The notes under the pieces: model-generated
The model's database searches: none
Told to the model about the DNA's origin: nothing
The model's input: only the letters and a program-made list of their open reading frames with translations
Part shown: positions 2,198-55,152 of the stretch, one piece after another
Position numbering within the stretch: the stretch's first letter is position 1
Layout of the letters: each line of letters begins with the position of its first letter
Origin: an uncultured Thermoleophilaceae bacterium
Lineage (GTDB): Bacteria > Actinomycetota > Thermoleophilia > Solirubrobacterales > Thermoleophilaceae
NCBI GenBank assembly: GCA_963755215.1
Contig: CAVWIW010000014.1
Coordinates: 14,347-78,346 of the forward strand
DNA: 64,000 nt
Direction: 5' to 3'
Translations under genes and position numbers: made by a program

Positions 2198-3769
2198 TCA
2201 GCGAACGACCACGAACCTGCGCTTCCCCAAGGCGCGTCCATACTTCCGCGCCGCCGGCCTGCCCTCGCCGGGCCACACGAACCAGGTGTAGCGGCCGGCC
2301 ACCAGACGGCGCCGCCGGCCGGCGAAGCGCCAGCTTCCGTGCAGCTGCAGCCGGTTGGTGCGCGGCCACCGGCTGAGCACCTTGCGGCCGGCGCGGAAGA
2401 GCTGGACGTTGTAGTACCGCGCTCGCTTGACCGGCTTCCAGATCAAGAGCGGCGGCTGCTTCAGCCTCCCGCCGTTCGCAGGAACGAGCAGAGGCGACGA
2501 CGTGGGCACAGCGCTGGTCTCGTCCCAGGACCGGTTGCCGGCCCTGTCGACCGCTCCCACTCGGTAGCGGTAGCGAACGCCGTTGCGCAGTTCCCGGCCG
2601 GTGAACCTGCGCCCCGCGCCGCGATACAGGACCACGTCGGCGCCGGGGTCGAGCCGCACGACCTCGAAGCTCAACCCGTCCGCCGGCAGCGACCAAGTCA
2701 GGCTGACCCGGCGGTGGCCTGGCAGCGCCTGGGCCCGCGGCGCGCCGGGGGGAGTGGCGTCGTAGGCGACGGTGTAGGACGCGGTGCCGACGTTCCCGGC
2801 GCGGTCGCGACAGCGGCCGGACACCGGCACCGCCTGGCCATCCGGCCCGCCGAAGCCGACCGTGTCGCAGCCCGCCACCCCGGACGTGCCGTCGCTGCCC
2901 TTGAACGACAGCGTCACCGGACGGTTGAACCAGCCGCCGTAGTCCGGCGGGCGGCTGGACGTGAAGCCCTGCCCCGTGGGCGGCACGCGGTCGATTCGGA
3001 TCGGAACGCTGTGCGCCGTGGTCATGAAGGGATCGCCGAGTTCCCGGATTTCGCAGTTCGCCCTGGCGGTCGCCGTGTCATTCGTGAACCGGGTCTCGAA
3101 GCAGTTCCCGCCGTTCGGCATGGCGATCAGCTGATCCCAGTCCCACCGCAGAGTGACACTCGAGCGGTACCAGCCGAGGCAGTTCGCCGGCGCCGGCGAG
3201 CACGCGTATGTCAGCGCCGGCGCCGCCCGTGCCTCGGCCGGCAACCCGGCGAGGACCGCCAGGACCACCAGCGCCGGCCCCGCGAGCCGGACCATCAGGC
3301 GGAGGCTGGCCGTGCCGGCTGCCACCAGGAGCAGCAGCCCCACGGCGGCGCGCAGGAGCGGCCCCCTGTCGGCCGTCTCACCCGTCACGGGCTTCAGCGG
3401 CAGCCGCGGCCAGGCCGTCGCGCGCTGCAGCGAAGCCGGCAGCGCGCCGGCAGCGCCGACCGGGGTCCGCTCCCGGCGTGCCTCCCGGCGTTTCGGCGCC
3501 GGCCGCGAGGCCGGGACGGGCACCGCGACTCTGCTCGGCGCGACCACGCGTACCGGACGGGCGTCGACCGGGGGCGGCGTGCGTGCAACCGGAGCGGATC
3601 GCGTCTCGGCGGCGGGCGGCTGCGCCGCGGGGGCCGGATCGGGCGCAGGCGCGGGCGCGCTCGTCGGCGAGGGTGCCGGGTCAGGCGCGGGAGGGGCGGC
3701 AACCGACAGGACCGGCGCTGCGACGAGGACGAGCGCGGTGAAGCAGAGCCAGAGCCCGAAGACGCGCAA
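2198..3769 (-). CDS. exported Pro/Ala-rich protein with Ig/fibronectin-III-like C-terminal region
   Basis: ORF 2198..3832. Preferred start is TTG at 3769 with AGGAGGG 7 nt upstream, giving a signal-like MRVFGLWLCFTALVLVAAP. A long Pro-rich spacer and a second hydrophobic segment follow, then a beta-rich Cys-containing part with an FN3-like pattern (RVSLTWSLP...YRYRVGAVDRAGN). Confidence 0.6.
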   Translation of the reverse strand: MRVFGLWLCFTALVLVAAPVLSVAAPPAPDPAPSPTSAPAPAPDPAPAAQPPAAETRSAPVARTPPPVDARPVRVVAPSRVAVPVPASRPAPKRREARRERTPVGAAGALPASLQRATAWPRLPLKPVTGETADRGPLLRAAVGLLLLVAAGTASLRLMVRLAGPALVVLAVLAGLPAEARAAPALTYACSPAPANCLGWYRSSVTLRWDWDQLIAMPNGGNCFETRFTNDTATARANCEIRELGDPFMTTAHSVPIRIDRVPPTGQGFTSSRPPDYGGWFNRPVTLSFKGSDGTSGVAGCDTVGFGGPDGQAVPVSGRCRDRAGNVGTASYTVAYDATPPGAPRAQALPGHRRVSLTWSLPADGLSFEVVRLDPGADVVLYRGAGRRFTGRELRNGVRYRYRVGAVDRAGNRSWDETSAVPTSSPLLVPANGGRLKQPPLLIWKPVKRARYYNVQLFRAGRKVLSRWPRTNRLQLHGSWRFAGRRRRLVAGRYTWFVWPGEGRPAARKYGRALGKRRFVVVR

Positions 3770-3844
3770 TAGGTCACCCTCCTGGTGTCGTAACTCGCGT
3801 CCGGGGCCACCGTAGACCCCGGCCGCCGGCAAGTCAACGGAGCG

Positions 3845-3908: not shown

Positions 3909-4982
3909 TCACCTCCTCACGACGCCCTGAGCCTGGGCCAGCGCCTGCTCGAGCGCGTTGTAGTTGGCCGCGAACGAGGCGGCGCCCGACGCGTTCGACT
4001 GCGTCAGGTCGCCCCCGCCGCCGTAGCTCGCGAACCGCAGGGCCAGGCTCTTGTTCTCGGGGTAGACCTGCTTCGAGTCCGCCCACGAATCCGCGTCCTG
4101 GTAGTTCCGCGCAGCCTGGCCGGCGGCCTGGATCCCCAGCCCGCCGTGGCATCGACAGCTCGAGCCGTCCTGGCTCTGGTCGATGGCCTGCGCTGTGCGA
4201 TTGGCGTTCAGGGCCTTCGAAAGCGCCACGGACTCGTTGCTCTGAGTCACGTCGCCGTCGTCGCCCTTGCTCAGCACGCGCACGGAGAGCGCGTTGTTCT
4301 CCGGCTTGTACTGCTTCGACTCGGCCGAGGACTCGGCGCCCTGGGTCGAGTACGCGTGCTGTCCGGCTGCCTGGATCCCAACCGAGCCTTCGCAGCACTT
4401 GGGATCGGAGTCCTTGCGGTCGCCGTGCTCTTCGTGCGAGCAGCACCGCGACCCGTCCTGCGCCTGCCGGATCGCCTGCCCGAGCCGGTTCTCGTTGACC
4501 GCGTACGACTTGGCGGCCGACTCGTTGCTCTGCGAGACGTCTCCGTCGTCGCCAGGGCTGAGAACCCGCACCGAGATGTTGCGATTGGTGGGCTTGACCT
4601 GCGTGGAGTCCGCCCTGGAGTCCGCCGACTGATCGTTGACGGCCTTCTGACCGGCCTCCTGCACCGCGGCGCCACCGGAGCCGGCCTGCCGCTGCTCGAC
4701 CGCCTGCGCGGTGGAGTTGCCATTGGCGGCGCCGGACTCGGCGGTGGACGTATTGCGCTGGGTCACCGAGCCGTTGTCACCGGGGCTCAGGACCCGGACC
4801 GAGATGTTGGTGTTGCTCGGTCCGTACTGCGTCGAGGTCGCGCCCGACTGAGCGGACTGCTCGTTGGCGGCGGTCTGCTCCGAGACCTGGCCGCTCGCGG
4901 GGGCGTCGGCCATTGCCGGCCCGGCACCCACCCCAAGGGCTGCCGCGCTCACGACCAGCGCGACGAAACGGTTGCGTTTCAT
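3909..4982 (-). CDS. secreted Q/N/S/A-rich tandem-repeat protein (four imperfect repeats of 76-95 aa)
   Basis: 357-aa ORF with SD GAGGAGAA upstream of the ATG and a signal peptide (MKRNRFVALVVSAAALGVGAGPAMA|DA). Four repeats each carry N-x-S-V-R-V-L-S-P-G-D-x-G-x-V-T-Q-S-N-x-S followed by an A/S/N/Q ladder. Cys pairs (CC...CC, C-R-C) lie between repeats. Confidence 0.8.
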   Translation of the reverse strand: MKRNRFVALVVSAAALGVGAGPAMADAPASGQVSEQTAANEQSAQSGATSTQYGPSNTNISVRVLSPGDNGSVTQRNTSTAESGAANGNSTAQAVEQRQAGSGGAAVQEAGQKAVNDQSADSRADSTQVKPTNRNISVRVLSPGDDGDVSQSNESAAKSYAVNENRLGQAIRQAQDGSRCCSHEEHGDRKDSDPKCCEGSVGIQAAGQHAYSTQGAESSAESKQYKPENNALSVRVLSKGDDGDVTQSNESVALSKALNANRTAQAIDQSQDGSSCRCHGGLGIQAAGQAARNYQDADSWADSKQVYPENKSLALRFASYGGGGDLTQSNASGAASFAANYNALEQALAQAQGVVRR

Positions 4983-5055
4983 GTCGTTCTCCTCTGCGTC
5001 TTGACTTGGGCCGGGAGGTCGTTCCCCCCGGCGGGTCGCGAAGAGCCGACAGGCG

Positions 5056-6162
5056 CTAGCCAGGCCGTTCGAGCCTGCGTGAGCCGATGAAAGAGGCGAA
5101 CCTCGGGATGCGCGCCCAGACCGGGCCCAGGGCGCGTGGCGCGATCAGGCTCAGCGCGCCGAGCAGCACCACCAGGAGCACCGACGACGAGCCGCCCGGC
5201 GGGCCGGGAGCCGACGCGGCGGGCCGCGCCACGGCAGGCATCTCGAACGGGCCCGTGGACCCTTTACCCGCCTCGGGGTTCCGTCCCCGACGGGTATCCA
5301 GGCTGGGAGACGAGCGCTGCGAAGCAGTGGCCGCGAGGGGAACGGCGTACCCGGTCACCGGGCCCGCAGCTGCGGGGATACGGGCCGGTTTGAATGGCGC
5401 GCCGCCGCCCTGGACCTGGCGCGGCTCTGAGCGCCCCGCGGCGGGTGACGGCCCGCTCTGCTCGGGGGCGGTGCCCTGCGGACGGAGCCCATCCGGGGGC
5501 TGCACGGCGCCGCGTCGGGGCAGCTCGGAGGGGGTGCGCGCGGCGCCGTCCTTGCTCCGGTCACCGCGCGCCCCGGCCAGGCCTCCGCAATCCCAGTCCC
5601 AGTCCCACCTCCAGCCCGCGGCCGTGGCGGGTGGGGTCGCGGCGGGGTCGCACGTCCAGTCCCAGTCCCAGTCCCAGCAATCGGTGCCCACGAGCGGGCC
5701 GCTCGGCGCGCGGGCGCCGCCGCCGCTCCCCGTGAGCTGGACCACGTCCCCGTTGTCGCCGGGACTGAAGATTCGGATGTCCACGTTCACGTTCGCCGGT
5801 GGTCCAGCCGCCGTTGGTGGCTGCACGCTGCGTGCGTCCGGCTCGAGGGAGGGCGGGTCAGCGGTCGGCGCCACGGTCGGGGCCTCCCGGGCGGGCTCGG
5901 CCGCGGGTGCGGGCTCGGCCGGCGCGGTCGGGGGCGCGGTCGCTCCCCCACCGGCCGAGGCCTCCTCGGGACGATGCTGCTGCGACGGATCCAGCGCGGG
6001 GTCCGGCGCACCGTCCGGGGTCGCCGCCGGCGCGACGGCGCCGCCGGACCCGCCCGCGCTCGAGACCTCAGCGCTCGAAGGCTCAGGACATCCCATCGCG
6101 ATGGCCAGCGCGGCGAGAAAGCCGGCGACCATCCTGAGAGCGTTGCTTGGCGTGCTTGCCAT
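5056..6162 (-). CDS. exported (possible lipoprotein) Pro-rich protein with SPGD motif, WDWDWDW blocks and C-terminal hydrophobic anchor
   Basis: 368-aa ORF. N-terminus MASTPSNALRMVAGFLAALAIAMGC looks like a signal with a lipobox-like AMGC. It has one copy of NVNVDIRIFSPGDNGDVVQ, the blocks CWDWDWDWTC and WRWDWDWDC, and C-terminal SSVLLVVLLGALSLIAPR followed by basic residues. Confidence 0.65.
   Translation of the reverse strand: MASTPSNALRMVAGFLAALAIAMGCPEPSSAEVSSAGGSGGAVAPAATPDGAPDPALDPSQQHRPEEASAGGGATAPPTAPAEPAPAAEPAREAPTVAPTADPPSLEPDARSVQPPTAAGPPANVNVDIRIFSPGDNGDVVQLTGSGGGARAPSGPLVGTDCWDWDWDWTCDPAATPPATAAGWRWDWDWDCGGLAGARGDRSKDGAARTPSELPRRGAVQPPDGLRPQGTAPEQSGPSPAAGRSEPRQVQGGGAPFKPARIPAAAGPVTGYAVPLAATASQRSSPSLDTRRGRNPEAGKGSTGPFEMPAVARPAASAPGPPGGSSSVLLVVLLGALSLIAPRALGPVWARIPRFASFIGSRRLERPG
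5592..5677. repeat. two blocks of hexanucleotide (CCCAGT)n repeats encoding the W-D repeats
   Basis: Block 5592..5607 and block 5655..5677 are tandem CCCAGT units on the + strand (ACTGGG = W-D on the coding strand). They are in frame. Confidence 0.7.
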
Positions 6163-7250
6163 GGCAGTTCACCCGACAAGTACCGGCGAAACGCAGCCCC
6201 GGGCGAAATTCCCCGCGCCAGAGGCCGATATCGGAGATACTGCGGGGCGATATCGCGCCCTCCCGTCAAGGAAGGAGGGGGGTCTTCACGAAACAGCAGC
6301 TCAGCAGTGAGCGCGCGACGGCCACGGGCCGCCTCCTCACGGCCTACCGCGAGGAAGGCGACATCCGCGCGCGTGACCGGCTCATCCAGCTCTACATGCC
6401 GCTCGTCGAGACGCTTGCCCGCCGGCACGGCCGTCGCGGGGCGGAGCTCGAGGACCTCGTGCAGGTGGGCTCGATCGGCCTGCTCAAAGCGATCGACCGC
6501 TTCGATCCCCGCAAGGGCGAGGAGCTCACGGCCTACGCAGTCCCGACGATCTCCGGTGAGATCAAGCGCCACCTGCGCGACCGGGGGCGAGGCGACCCGG
6601 CCGCGCTGGAGCAGGCAGGGGCCTTGAGCCATCGCGGGGAGGCCGACGCCGAGCCCGAGTCCGAGGTGGACGACCGGATCCTGCTGGCCGGCGCGTTCGA
6701 GGCGCTCGACGACACGGAGCGAAAGGTCATCTACCTGCGCTACATCCGCGAGCGGAGCCGGCGCGACACCGCGAAGGAGCTCGGGATGACGGACGATCGG
6801 CTGCGCAGGAGCACGCAGGCCGCGCTCGCCAAGCTGCGCGGAGAGCTCGAGCGGGGCGCCCTCCCGGCTCCGACCCGGGAAGCGCCCGCGCCGCTGGCAC
6901 CCAGCGAGCGCCCGCCGGAGCCTGGTCCCGCCCCGGCACCCGTCGCGGAGCCCGCCAGGGACCGCAACGGCGGTTCGCACAGCGGCCGGCTGCTGGTCCG
7001 GATGCCGCAGTCCCTGCACGACGAGCTCGCCAGCGCGGCGGAGGGCGACCGCGTGAGCCTGAACCAGTTCATCACCAATGCACTGGCGTCAGCCGTCGGA
7101 TGGAACCAGCCGCGGAGCCCGGAGCCGCCGCCGAGCGAGCCGCAGCCACCCCGGCTGCTGCGGGCGGCGATCGTGACGAACATCGTCGTGCTCGCGCTGG
7201 CCGGAGTCGCGGCGCTGCTCCTGCTGGTGGCCTGGCAGCAGGGCTGGTAA
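6147..7250 (+). CDS. sigma-70 family factor (regions 2 and 4 only) fused to a ribbon-helix-helix (HicB/Arc-like) domain and a C-terminal transmembrane helix
   Basis: Region 2 motifs LEDLVQVGSIGLLKAIDRFDP and PTISGEIKRHLRD. Region 4 ALDDTERKVIYLRYIRERSRRDTAKELGMTDDRLRRSTQAALAKLR. RHH-like SGRLLVRMPQSLHDELASAAEGDRVSLNQFITNALASAVGW (about 6981-7103). TM AAIVTNIVVLALAGVAALLLLVAW (about 7164-7235). The start is uncertain: the only in-frame canonical starts are TTG 6147/6156, and the strong SD GGAAGGAGGGGGG at 6270-6282 has no canonical start after it. Confidence 0.75.
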   Translation: MACLPWQFTRQVPAKRSPGRNSPRQRPISEILRGDIAPSRQGRRGVFTKQQLSSERATATGRLLTAYREEGDIRARDRLIQLYMPLVETLARRHGRRGAELEDLVQVGSIGLLKAIDRFDPRKGEELTAYAVPTISGEIKRHLRDRGRGDPAALEQAGALSHRGEADAEPESEVDDRILLAGAFEALDDTERKVIYLRYIRERSRRDTAKELGMTDDRLRRSTQAALAKLRGELERGALPAPTREAPAPLAPSERPPEPGPAPAPVAEPARDRNGGSHSGRLLVRMPQSLHDELASAAEGDRVSLNQFITNALASAVGWNQPRSPEPPPSEPQPPRLLRAAIVTNIVVLALAGVAALLLLVAWQQGW

Positions 7251-53070: not shown

Positions 53071-55152
53071 ATGCAGTTCAAGTGGCGGCAGGGGTTTTCG
53101 TTTAGGCACGGAGTGTCGTTGGCAGCGACGGTCGCGGCTGTGATGCTGGCCCTGCCTGCGATCGCCGTCGCCCACCTCGAGCGGCCCTCCTACTGGCCCG
53201 ACCCGGCCCCCGACAACACCGTCACTCCGCCGGCCGGGGGTGAAGTGCCCGAGGCGCGCTCGCTGAAGTCGGCACCGGGCGGCGCCGGCCCGGGCGATGT
53301 GCTGGTGGTCTGCAAGGGCACGCAAAAGGGCAAGGGCAAGAACGGGGCGCAGTCACTGGCCCTTCTTCGCAGCTCAGTGAGCGAGGCCCGCAGGAAGGGC
53401 TATCGCCTCCGGCCGAGCCAGCCGAAGATCAAGCTTTCCAAGAAGGAGGCGGACCGGCTGCTAGCAATCAACGCCGCACTGGCGCGGCAGTGCCGCTACG
53501 ACTCGGTCCAGCGGGCGGTCCGCGACGCGGGCAACAACGACCGGGTCCTGATCATGCCCGGCCACTACACCGAACCAGAGTCACGCAGCGCTCCGGAGAA
53601 CGACCCGACGTGCAACCCCAGCCTGCTCCAGAGGGACGCCAGCGGCGATCTCACCCCGAGCTACGAGTATCAGGTCACGTGTCCCAACGACCAGAACCTG
53701 ATCTACGTGCAGGGGCGCGCGGTGGTGGGCGACCCGCTGGTGCCGCCGCTCGCGAACCGCCAGGGGATCCCGGCTCAGGAGCTGGGCCCGTGCGTGCGGT
53801 GCAACCTGCAGATTGAGGGCACCGGCCCGAAGCCCGAGGACGTGATCCTCGACGCGGGCACCGACTATGAGGGTACGGGTGCGGCAGCGAAGCCCGGCGG
53901 CTACGCCAAGCACGTCGTCCTACGAGTGGACCGCGCCGATGGCTTCGTCGGGCGCAACTTCCTCGCGCGCGGGGCGCGGGAGCACACCTTCTACAACGAG
54001 GAGGTCGACGGCATCTTGCTCGACCGCGTCAAGTTCTTCTGGGGCGCGGACTACGGCCACCTCTCCTTCACCTCCGATCACAACCTCGTCGAGAACTGCG
54101 AGGGGCTCGGCGCAGGCGACGCGGTCGTATACCCGGGCGCGGCTCCGGAGACCGGCTCCCAGGCCACGGACTTTTATCCGGACGCGCCTCGGCCCAACAG
54201 CGTCATCAGGGACTGCGACCTGCACGGCTCCACGCTCGGCTACTCGGGCTCGATGGGCAACGCGGTCCGCATCACCCGCAACCACATCTACGGCAACACG
54301 ACCGGGATCTCGAGCGACACGCTCTCGGCCGCGGGTCATCCCGGCTTCCCGGCCGACAGCTCGCAGATCGACCACAACTACATCTACTCGAACAACCTCG
54401 ACCTCTACACGGAGAACCCGCCGGTCGACCCGCTGGTCGGAGTGCCGATCGGGACCGGGATCATCTACCCCGGAATGAACGACGCCCGCGTCCACGACAA
54501 CTGGATCTTCGACAACTGGCGCGACGGCGCGATGCTGTTCGCCGTTCCGGACGCGTTCACCAACGGTGGCGGCGCCGAAGGCGACATCTTCCCCGGCGTG
54601 TCATGCCCGGGCGCGCCGGCAAACGGGTTCTCGACCTCGTGTGGCAACCAGTTCTTCCGCAACCGTGTCGGCAGGGCGCCGAAGGGCTTCCGCTTCCCGG
54701 ATGCGATCGACATGTTCGGCAACGCACACGCCCACGACGACGCGAGGCCGAGGAAGCCGAACGGCAACGACTTCTGGTGGAGCGAGCTCTTCAGCTCCAA
54801 CACGGGAAACTGCTGGTTCAACAACACGGGCTTCGACGGGACCGCGGCCACCGTCACGGGGCCGGGCCAGGCCGGGCGGCTCCCGGCAGACCCGCCCCAG
54901 CTACTGCCGTCGAACTGTGCCACCAGCGTCGGTAACAACGACGGCGCCAAACTCGTCTATCTGGTCGACTGCGGGAACGGTCCCGACGAGGACACCGGGC
55001 CAACGGACTGCGACTGGTGGACCCTGCCGCCCAAGCCCGGCACCGCGCCCGCACAGAGCACGGAGCTGAGCCGAGCCAGGGCCGCGCGAGCGTTCGAGGA
55101 GTCGCCGGAGGCCGACGCGCTGAGGAAACGGGTCGCCGAGCTGACCCCTTGA
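53071..55152 (+). CDS. secreted right-handed parallel beta-helix repeat protein
   Basis: GGAGGAGG SD and signal MQFKWRQGFSFRHGVSLAATVAAVMLALPAIAVA. Repeated N-x-I/V-x-x-N segments (ITRNHIYGNTTGIS, IDHNYIYSNN, VHDNWIFDN). Confidence 0.75.
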   Translation: MQFKWRQGFSFRHGVSLAATVAAVMLALPAIAVAHLERPSYWPDPAPDNTVTPPAGGEVPEARSLKSAPGGAGPGDVLVVCKGTQKGKGKNGAQSLALLRSSVSEARRKGYRLRPSQPKIKLSKKEADRLLAINAALARQCRYDSVQRAVRDAGNNDRVLIMPGHYTEPESRSAPENDPTCNPSLLQRDASGDLTPSYEYQVTCPNDQNLIYVQGRAVVGDPLVPPLANRQGIPAQELGPCVRCNLQIEGTGPKPEDVILDAGTDYEGTGAAAKPGGYAKHVVLRVDRADGFVGRNFLARGAREHTFYNEEVDGILLDRVKFFWGADYGHLSFTSDHNLVENCEGLGAGDAVVYPGAAPETGSQATDFYPDAPRPNSVIRDCDLHGSTLGYSGSMGNAVRITRNHIYGNTTGISSDTLSAAGHPGFPADSSQIDHNYIYSNNLDLYTENPPVDPLVGVPIGTGIIYPGMNDARVHDNWIFDNWRDGAMLFAVPDAFTNGGGAEGDIFPGVSCPGAPANGFSTSCGNQFFRNRVGRAPKGFRFPDAIDMFGNAHAHDDARPRKPNGNDFWWSELFSSNTGNCWFNNTGFDGTAATVTGPGQAGRLPADPPQLLPSNCATSVGNNDGAKLVYLVDCGNGPDEDTGPTDCDWWTLPPKPGTAPAQSTELSRARAARAFEESPEADALRKRVAELTP

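Follow-up and report, generated by a model that had tools for sequence, protein, structure and literature searches.

A membrane-anchored surface protein, unnamed to date and conserved in soil Thermoleophilia, that combines an SPGD unit with paired alternating-tryptophan blocks

Introduction

In the curli system, a minor cell-associated protein, CsgB, shares its repeat type with the secreted, Gln/Asn-rich, all-beta major protein CsgA that is encoded adjacent to it, and in Streptomyces the long chaplins ChpA-C, which bear a C-terminal anchor signal, reportedly coexist with free short chaplins under developmental/alternative sigma factor control. Alternating-tryptophan strands are said to have been realized by design in the tryptophan zipper (trpzip) beta-hairpins of 12-16 residues, which are antiparallel and have tight turns, and ladders of Asn, Thr or Asp are formed in beta-solenoids and antifreeze proteins. 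The present work concerns a gene, hereafter the anchor gene, found on the minus strand of a 64,000-nucleotide (nt) stretch of DNA from an uncultured Thermoleophilaceae bacterium (assembly GCA_963755215.1, contig CAVWIW010000014.1, positions 14,347 to 78,346; this whole stretch is referred to as the window), the product of which carries one unit of the type repeated in the adjacently encoded secreted protein, two Cys-terminated blocks of alternating Trp, a long linker and a C-terminal transmembrane (TM) helix followed by a basic tail.

Thermoleophilia (Thermoleophilaceae, Solirubrobacteraceae, Gaiellaceae) are abundant in soil, and, to our knowledge, almost nothing is known about their cell surface. 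The anchor, a surface protein attached to the membrane, is conserved among soil Thermoleophilia and has had no name until now; its motifs and fixed neighbours suggest tethering or seeding of the adjacent secreted beta-sheet repeat protein. The reading favoured here, to which a probability of roughly 0.4 is given, is that this type-I membrane protein would serve, as anchor and/or nucleator, as the cell-attached base on which a surface structure is built from the downstream SPGD-repeat protein.

Results

The element linking the anchor to its surroundings is a single SPGD unit, whose motif (IRIFSPGDNGDVVQ) occupies amino acids (aa) 129-142, with aa 122-142 reading PPANVNVDIRIFSPGDNGDVVQ and the family consensus being N-x-N-V-x-I-R-I-x-S-P-G-D-x-G-x-V-x-Q; N126, I129, R130, S133, P134, G135, D136, G138, V140 and Q142 are invariant in an alignment of 14 homologues (alignment A1). 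Anchor aa 117-144 align with the repeats of the neighbouring protein at an hhalign probability of 97.4% (E 1.5e-11), a profile match that shows the unit to be homologous to those repeats, and the motif, which a preceding sequence-only reading of this DNA had treated as incidental, is instead the key link to the adjacent SPGD-repeat gene. One or two SPGD units plus a TM helix are found in the anchor, and four to nine units with a signal peptide and no anchor in its neighbour. Longer relatives contain two copies of the whole arrangement, in which SPGD is followed by a short W block...C and a long W block-x-C, with the Cys-Cys spacing remaining constant at 28-29 residues; this indicates that the SPGD unit and the two W strands form one module.

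Conservation of the gene order was assessed in 62 loci (the 61 loci of the family scan described below, less the duplicate L001, plus the window), in which genes were called and clustered. The SPGD-repeat cluster is present in 62/62, at position +1 in 36 of them, and adjoins the anchor gene essentially everywhere; a sigma factor cluster is found at -1/-2 in 54 loci and a gene for an immunoglobulin (Ig)-like protein at +2/+3 in 49, giving a fixed order of divergent sigma/ribbon-helix-helix (RHH)-TM, anchor, SPGD-repeat protein and Ig-like protein, the remaining neighbours being variable housekeeping or transport genes.

The SPGD-repeat protein, for which no source offers a meaningful name, has at least 482 relatives (sequence clusters). 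Its AlphaFold2 (AF2) model (predicted local distance difference test score, pLDDT, 78; predicted template modelling score, pTM, 0.69) is of fair confidence and shows an all-beta protein with 12 long strands. Every one of its four repeats is predicted to form strands of ~24, 10 and 27 residues, with the SPGD turn joining the short and the long one, and its alignment contains dozens of invariant, periodically spaced Gln, Asn, Ala and Ser residues. Cys-rich loops lie between the repeats (CC-SHEEHGDRKDSDPK-CC at aa ~176-200 and C-x-C at ~274-280, the latter pair near-invariant in 81 relatives), and these could be metal sites or inter-subunit disulfides. Some relatives of 540-620 aa (P0021, P0032 and others) show precomputed matches to PF11720 (Inhibitor_I78), in the case of P0021 with 33 bits over ~28 residues, for which a fused domain and a repeat-driven artefact are both possible explanations.

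The two Trp blocks had caught the eye of the sequence-only reading as Trp-Asp runs flanked by Cys, an arrangement that it did not recognise and that indeed has no match in Pfam, NCBIfam, PDB or the literature searched. The alternating Trp with a Cys proved to be conserved, whereas the opening Cys162 is an insertion private to the window protein, and Trp-Asp alternation is a lineage-specific form of the W-x-W-x-W...C pattern, in which a single Cys follows each block (C171 and C192). Trp163, 165, 167 and 169 are invariant in alignment A1, a Cys lies no more than five residues after each W block in 90/92 family members, and the mature proteins mostly have exactly two Cys, there being one pair at constant spacing per SPGD unit and its two W blocks. 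Family members have two blocks of 3-6 Trp each (4+4 being the commonest combination), separated by a loop of 10-25 residues, and the residues between the Trp are N (213), T (166) and D (73). At the DNA level, the Trp-Asp runs of the anchor consist of perfectly repeated hexamers, TGGGAC when read on the coding strand (5656-5677 and 5591-5607), and such tracts could gain or lose W-D units without leaving the reading frame.

Strands with a W-x-W-x-W pattern are amphipathic, every Trp pointing to the same side. When the spacer residues of one block are compared with those of the other, the match is closest in a parallel, Cys-anchored register (identity 0.325 vs. a null of 0.193, z 6.2; antiparallel z 3.3); the two Cys would be neighbours in such a parallel in-register arrangement and at opposite ends of an antiparallel hairpin, and the loop of at least 10 residues fits the cross-over connection that parallel strands need. 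As AF2 is confident for two helices of the anchor only, this Trp-block geometry is deduced from the sequence. Several more familiar identities of the blocks were considered and rejected. WD40 repeats are units of ~40 residues that end in Trp-Asp and form a beta-propeller; here, there is no Pfam match, W and D are adjacent and alternating, and Asp is swapped for Asn/Thr in relatives. Darobactin-like W-N-W cross-linking is not indicated either, the conserved module having no radical S-adenosylmethionine (SAM) maturase and the radical-SAM gene near related loci being of the MoaA type, and choline-binding, LysM and S-layer homology (SLH) readings found no Pfam/NCBIfam model match.

Between the second block and the helix, family members have a Pro/Ala/Gly linker of at least 122 aa (median 145). 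The C-terminal segment of the anchor then reads GGSSS-VLLVVLLGALSLIAP (helix), RALGPVWARIPRFASFIGSRRLERPG and the stop codon. Statistics for this region come from a set of 103-104 relatives for which a terminal Pro-Gly was, together with W-x-W, the selection criterion: the eight positions preceding the helix are 37% Gly (104 relatives), with GG or G-x-G in 77/104, and among the 103 picked for Pro-Gly the residues preceding that end are R at -3 (91), E/D at -4 (99), L/I at -5 (84) and R at -6 (84). That the end itself is conserved can be seen where it was not selected for, P367 and G368 being at least 90% conserved in alignment A2 and a PG ending being present in 96 of the 108 retrieved proteins that hold both an SPGD unit and a W block. 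Across the family, the tail extends 13-28 aa beyond the helix and has a median net charge of +4.

This C-terminus had been likened to a sorting signal lacking LPXTG or a clean PEP motif. The lack of these motifs is upheld: L[PA]xTG (LPXTG/LAXTG) occurs within the last 75 aa of 0/103 family members, PEP in 1/103 and PGF in 0/103, there is no match to an NCBIfam LPXTG-anchor model or to PEP-CTERM/PGF-CTERM models, and, with E values of up to 1 admitted, neither the window protein nor any of 10 diverse relatives is matched by an NCBIfam sorting-domain model (GlyGly-CTERM, PEP-CTERM, LPXTG and others). The likeness itself fares worse, in view of the conserved peptide at the far end, 13-28 aa past the helix, its restriction to one gene per locus (the TM helix with a ...RPG tail is found on no other gene in the 62 loci) and the finding that none of the neighbours conserved or semi-conserved in the +/-10 kb around these loci is a sortase, exosortase or rhomboid; nor is there a sortase among the 24 scanned genes of the about 62 in the window.

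Given a window G+C content of 71%, at which long open reading frames (ORFs) are frequent in many frames, and given that the W-D runs are perfect (TGGGAC)n repeats, it might be asked if the anchor ORF is nothing but a chance frame over GC-rich hexanucleotide repeat DNA. This is extremely improbable, and the non-coding repeat reading is excluded by conservation, frame, selection and the family profile. G+C content at third codon positions (GC3) is 0.85 in the anchor frame, the highest of the three codon positions along its full length (0.71 for the window), and the frame is kept in orthologues at about 90-91%, 56% and ~38% identity. Synonymous divergence from three Thermoleophilaceae orthologues is 0.05, 0.57 and 1.2 per site, frame and motifs being retained at 0.5-1.2 synonymous substitutions/site. 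The ratio of nonsynonymous to synonymous substitution rates (dN/dS) has its minima, 0.24-0.43 and 0.11-0.31, in the SPGD+Trp core and the C-terminal 48 aa, respectively, where it is as low as 0.24-0.31 in the comparison with the 56%-identity orthologue, and it is near neutral in the Pro/Ala linkers (0.6-1.1); the family profile matches 429 cluster representatives. Because of the GC3, the homologues at several identities, the kept frame and the dN/dS pattern, the anchor ORF is a real coding gene. The motifs listed by the sequence-only reading (CWDWDWDWTC, WRWDWDWDC, AIAMGC, one SPGD unit and a hydrophobic C-terminal helix) are all there, its view of the protein as exported agrees with the two helices predicted by AF2, namely a signal helix (aa 7-23) and, near the C-terminus, a TM helix (aa 326-344), and, where it had foreseen that a lack of conservation or frameshifting lengths of the WD region would betray non-coding repeats, conservation of the ORF is found instead, with variation of the W region in frame only.

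A family scan over one genome per GTDB species returned 61 loci, and the family is mostly confined to Thermoleophilia. Nearly all of these loci are from metagenome-assembled genomes of Thermoleophilaceae, Solirubrobacteraceae, Gaiellaceae or unclassified Thermoleophilia/Actinomycetes, many of them from Danish soils; two members fall outside Thermoleophilia (L022, Ca. Limnocylindrales, Chloroflexota; L024, Ilumatobacteraceae), which binning error or lateral transfer could account for. When 1.84 billion cluster representatives were searched exhaustively with the family profile, 429 proteins matched at E<=1e-3 (186 at E<=1e-10). An SPGD unit, W-x-W blocks and a Pro-Gly end, the three hallmarks, occur together in 96 of the proteins retrieved, the rest being mostly multi-repeat SPGD proteins, and all three motifs are also seen in the large majority of 57 listed genomic loci. 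The window protein itself satisfies the family definition, having an SPGD unit, a double W-x-W block, a TM helix and a ...RPG end, and lying beside an SPGD-repeat gene. Searches of Pfam and NCBIfam, and of PDB with both family profiles and the third gene of the module, found no entry covering any of the three non-regulatory module genes, and the literature searched held no WDWDW in this sense, no W-x-W-x-W, RLERPG, SPGDNG/SPGDDG or WNWTW-type strings, and no paper tying Thermoleophilia to functional amyloid.

Features of the anchor gene and of its neighbours are collected in Table 1.

Table 1. Coordinates of the anchor gene, its parts and the adjoining elements (positions within the window).
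Feature	Position	Strand	Basis
Whole anchor gene, 368 aa + stop	5056..6162	-	ORF list, GC3, orthologues/family, purifying selection
Signal peptide, aa 1-25, ending in lipobox-like AIAMGC (Cys25)	6088..6162	-	Sequence; AF2 helix aa 7-23
Pro/Ala-rich N-terminal spacer, aa 26-120, A 26%, P 22%	5803..6087	-	Composition
Single SPGD unit, aa 122-144 (PPANVNVDIRIFSPGDNGDVVQLT)	5731..5799	-	Invariant columns; hhalign to neighbour repeats
Trp block 1, aa 162-171 (C-WDWDWDW-T-C), C171 alone conserved	5650..5679	-	Sequence, alignment, family counts
Trp block 2, aa 184-192 (W-R-WDWDWD-C), C192 conserved	5587..5613	-	Sequence, alignment, family counts
Ala/Pro/Gly/Arg-rich linker from core to membrane, aa 193-321	5200..5586	-	Composition; no predicted structure (AF2)
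Gly/Ser run and TM helix, aa 323-342 (GGSSSVLLVVLLGALSLIAP)	5137..5196	-	AF2 helix 326-344, pLDDT up to 86
Basic tail, aa 343-368, ending RLERPG-COOH (aa 363-368 = nt 5059-5076)	5059..5136	-	Conservation, charge, dN/dS
GC-rich 9-bp stem-loop between anchor stop and next gene	5010..5032	-	Spacer of about 73-76 nt folds at -32.9 kcal/mol, z -2.3
Downstream secreted protein, 357 aa, four SPGD repeats, Gln/Asn/Ser/Ala-rich	3909..4982	-	ORF list, relatives, AF2
Third module gene, membrane/secreted, Ig-like/fibronectin type III (FN3)-like	2198..3832	-	Weak NCBIfam MXAN_2561, E 8e-11, below cut-off
Divergent regulator: group-3 sigma + RHH (HicB-like) + C-terminal TM helix, start codon uncertain	6147..7250	+	Pfam Sigma70_r2, Sigma70_r4, HicB
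Divergent intergenic conserved blocks	6167..6254	.	Upstream regions of 9 Thermoleophilaceae/Solirubrobacteraceae loci aligned

As for the N-terminus, the lipobox-like signal pointed out by the sequence-only reading is present, the IAMGC of the window protein and its closest relatives fitting the [LVI][ASTVI][GAS]C pattern, but judging by the sequences of the relatives it is not a family feature: just 11/76 full-length relatives have such a Cys, the remainder having Ala-x-Ala type sites. The spacer that follows has no secondary structure in the AF2 model (pLDDT below 50-65) and a dN/dS of 0.68-1.1.

The window encodes its divergent regulator as a fused protein, which, going by its predicted domains, would be a membrane-tethered sigma factor, whereas many loci have it split into adjacent genes for a sigma factor (~195 aa) and an RHH-TM protein of 105-165 aa, which in one case has a complete HicB N-domain. 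Its NCBIfam match to the SigB/F/G subfamily (135 bits) is below the cut-off; the window regulator ends in ...AWQQGW, and there is no canonical start after the ribosome-binding-like site GGAAGGAGG. Matches of the third-gene homologues to Big_13 and fn3 are mostly sub-threshold.

Within the divergent intergenic region, a Shine-Dalgarno (SD)-like block GGTACTTGTCGGGTGAAC (minus strand, 6167-6184) lies directly before the anchor ATG and is kept in the close group, and a pair of GATATC palindromes (6227-6232 and 6249-6254, 16-nt spacer) is kept in the close Thermoleophilaceae group and not in distant loci; from their sequence and position, the boxes and the block are candidate operator, promoter or SD elements. 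A GATAYC pair as a family-wide upstream element (25/47 loci) was rejected, being located in Gaiellales-type loci inside the ORF, where it encodes Asp-Ile/Thr-Thr repeats. In such loci (L025 9929-9990, L029 and L060), the N-terminal spacer of the anchor has short coding repeats GATA[TC]C...GCCGATACC, which encode x-D-I/T-T/A-x-A-D-T and, as DNA, mimic paired operator boxes. A SigB/F-type promoter (GTTT-N14-GGGTG) just 5' of the ATG was likewise dismissed, as it is missing from the corresponding region of the 90%-identical orthologue and from every other locus. The stem-loop downstream of the anchor gene has no U-tail; it may attenuate transcription and may set the anchor : repeat-protein expression ratio. 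Elsewhere in the window, an unrelated 693-aa protein (53071-55152, plus strand) contains a region of right-handed beta-helix, matched by Pfam Beta_helix slightly below the cut-off (E 1e-5).

Discussion

If the anchor is indeed the base of a surface structure, its signal peptide would lead to export, the C-terminal helix would stay membrane-embedded, leaving the Arg-rich tail ...RLERPG on the cytoplasmic side, and the disordered linker of at least 122 residues would let a small folded core reach through the wall. This core would consist of the one SPGD strand-turn-strand unit and the two W-x-W-x-W-x-W strands, each ending in Cys, which would stack parallel and in register, stapled by a C171-C192 disulfide, so as to present about seven Trp on one face and Asp (Asn/Thr in relatives) on the other. 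The SPGD unit might then pair with, or template, the beta-sheet that the repeat protein forms, while the ladder of Trp would cap or stabilise that SPGD interface, and the module would be transcribed under its own divergent group-3 sigma factor and membrane-tethered RHH protein. This reading is favoured because the SPGD unit is shared with the repeats of the neighbour, the linkage of the module is strict (62/62, 54 and 49 loci), one partner is membrane-anchored and the other free and secreted, and the latter is predicted to be an all-beta repeat protein with periodic Gln/Asn/Ala/Ser; because the linker is in no case below 122 aa, as would be expected of a wall-spanning spacer; because two Cys per unit are kept at constant spacing and duplicated as a unit, and loops of 10 aa or more together with the parallel register fit best; and because purifying selection concentrates on the core and the C-terminus.

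Several points weigh against it. The conserved, presumably cytoplasmic end ...RLERPG is left without explanation by an anchor model, and the anchor and the repeat protein could be co-regulated without ever being in contact. The model of the neighbour matches no solved fibre or amyloid in PDB (best Foldseek E 0.07, TM-scores <=0.1), and the repeat protein has no Curlin, chaplin or TasA match in Pfam, so that polymerisation is conjecture. The better fit of the parallel register may merely reflect the origin of the two blocks by duplication, and AF2, supplied with only 18 aligned sequences, yields no confident structure for the core (aa 140-200 have a pLDDT of 37-43).

Three other readings deserve to be weighed, of which that of a true sorting signal seems unlikely: a protease encoded elsewhere in the genome (rhomboid-/rhombosortase-like or an unknown sortase) would cut at the Gly/Ser run and move the protein to the wall or a lipid, the helix and tail being discarded. 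The tripartite layout of a Gly-rich run, a helix and a basic region speaks for it, whereas the lack of any sorting-domain match in 11 members does not, and neither does the confinement of the tail to one gene per locus, with no unrelated protein bearing it, when sorting signals are typically common to several unrelated proteins. The Gly run resembles the "often SGGS" motif of GlyGly-CTERM (PMC3237569; PMC6219818), and a signal peptide with no further TM segment is what such substrates have (PMC3237569). In single-target GlyGly-CTERM genomes, however, the protease gene usually lies next to its target (PMC3237569), and no protease is found among the conserved or semi-conserved neighbours here. 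That the far cytoplasmic R-L-E-R-P-G is the most conserved part would, moreover, be unexpected for a segment that is thrown away. It is precisely this end that is accounted for if the anchor were a transmembrane signalling partner of the sigma/RHH-TM proteins, its core sensing the surface structure or the wall and its ...SSRLERPG end binding or releasing the regulator in a feedback on the module. The sigma/RHH-TM genes are divergently adjacent in 54/62 loci, the RHH protein ends in a TM helix and would thus have its soluble part at the inner membrane face, beside the tail, the terminal octapeptide is the most strongly conserved stretch, with very low dN/dS, and no separate anti-sigma gene is seen in the module; on the other hand, the tail is only 13-28 aa long and without similarity to known anti-sigma domains, and the extracellular features (the shared SPGD unit and the long spacer) favour a structural role. 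Taken as the account of the protein, signalling is given a low probability, though the signalling and anchor roles are compatible and not exclusive.

Aromatic platforms are the usual means by which carbohydrate- and wall-binding modules hold glycans, and amphipathic strands with all Trp on one face, in a core that sits outside the membrane on a long spacer, could be such a platform, in which case the protein would be a wall-associated adhesin or wall-binding protein and SPGD merely a shared structural element. This is quite improbable, as there is no match to a carbohydrate-binding module (CBM), LysM, SLH, WxL or choline-binding model, the neighbourhood has no polysaccharide synthesis or degradation genes, and the strict pairing with the repeat protein would be left unexplained. 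Finally, a bolder extension of the anchor reading may be put forward, namely that of a natural disulfide-stapled Trp-ladder beta-arch, with two parallel W rungs, that would cap or seed a beta-sheet polymer and whose ...SSRLERPG-COOH would report assembly to the membrane-tethered sigma/RHH regulator; the combination is to be regarded as unlikely, and its outside-in checkpoint would be analogous in logic to FlgM/sigma-28, the parts being unrelated.

The present work defines a conserved, wholly unannotated module of 4-5 genes, which probably builds a major surface structure, and it offers three signatures which curators could model, namely those of the SPGD repeat, of the paired W-x-W-x-W...C blocks and of the TM helix followed by the ...RLERPG end. 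The conserved cytoplasmic end may mark a new coupling of surface assembly to a sigma factor, or else a new processing pathway. Should the disulfide-stapled alternating-Trp module be real, such a natural example would be of interest to protein designers and to structural biologists of amyloids and beta-solenoids, and, if both the beta-arch and the reporting tail held true, this would be a previously unseen kind of actinobacterial surface-assembly system.

Comparison with known systems

Among sorting signals, GlyGly-CTERM has a similar Gly/Ser motif, hydrophobic helix and basic residues at the C-terminus of proteins with an N-terminal signal peptide (PMC3237569; PMC6219818). The anchor differs from it by the extra 13-28 aa of tail ending in RLERPG, by the lack of a model match (11 members), by the confinement of its domain to one family and one gene per locus, and by having no adjacent rhomboid-type gene; the GlyGly-CTERM genera named in PMC3237569 (Shewanella, Vibrio, Acinetobacter and Ralstonia) are, furthermore, Gram-negative, whereas the anchor host belongs to Actinomycetota.

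The likeness to curli lies in the sharing of a repeat type between a minor cell-associated protein and a secreted major one encoded alongside, and in the periodic invariant Gln/Asn/Ser/Ala, which are also a property of the SPGD-repeat protein; the (non-significant) Foldseek list for the model of the latter is headed by beta-solenoids (SufBD, FapC, a CsgA, Ag43 and ice-binding proteins). Neither the anchor nor its neighbour, however, matches Curlin_rpt (PF07012) at E up to 1, CsgA (8c50) is hit at a Foldseek E of 0.21 with a TM-score of 0.06, and the curli rungs are far shorter than the 24-27-residue strands of the SPGD-repeat protein. No CsgG/E/F-type secretion genes are found in the neighbourhoods of the loci, the host is a presumed monoderm actinobacterium, and curli have no Trp-ladder module, whereas the SPGD anchor does and is an integral membrane protein.

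Chaplins are a similar actinobacterial pairing of anchored and free surface-fibre subunits under sigma control. Here, in contrast, neither the anchor nor its neighbour matches the Pfam chaplin domain, which spans about 40 aa and has two Cys, the LAXTG motif is absent from the anchor family (0/103), the secreted partner is a large multi-repeat protein instead of a peptide of ~55 aa, and the anchoring element is a TM helix that may be retained, with a conserved cytoplasmic end. TapA/TasA follow the same logic of pairing, with no homology. In terms of local structure, the W-x-W-x-W of the anchor would put the indoles on one face and Asn/Thr/Asp on the other, as in trpzips and the ladders of beta-solenoids, respectively, but its strands lie 10-25 residues apart and the positions of its Cys favour a parallel arrangement over the antiparallel one of trpzips. 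By analogy with these systems, an anchor/nucleator with a repeat surface protein would thus be a known kind of pairing, here seemingly built from new parts.

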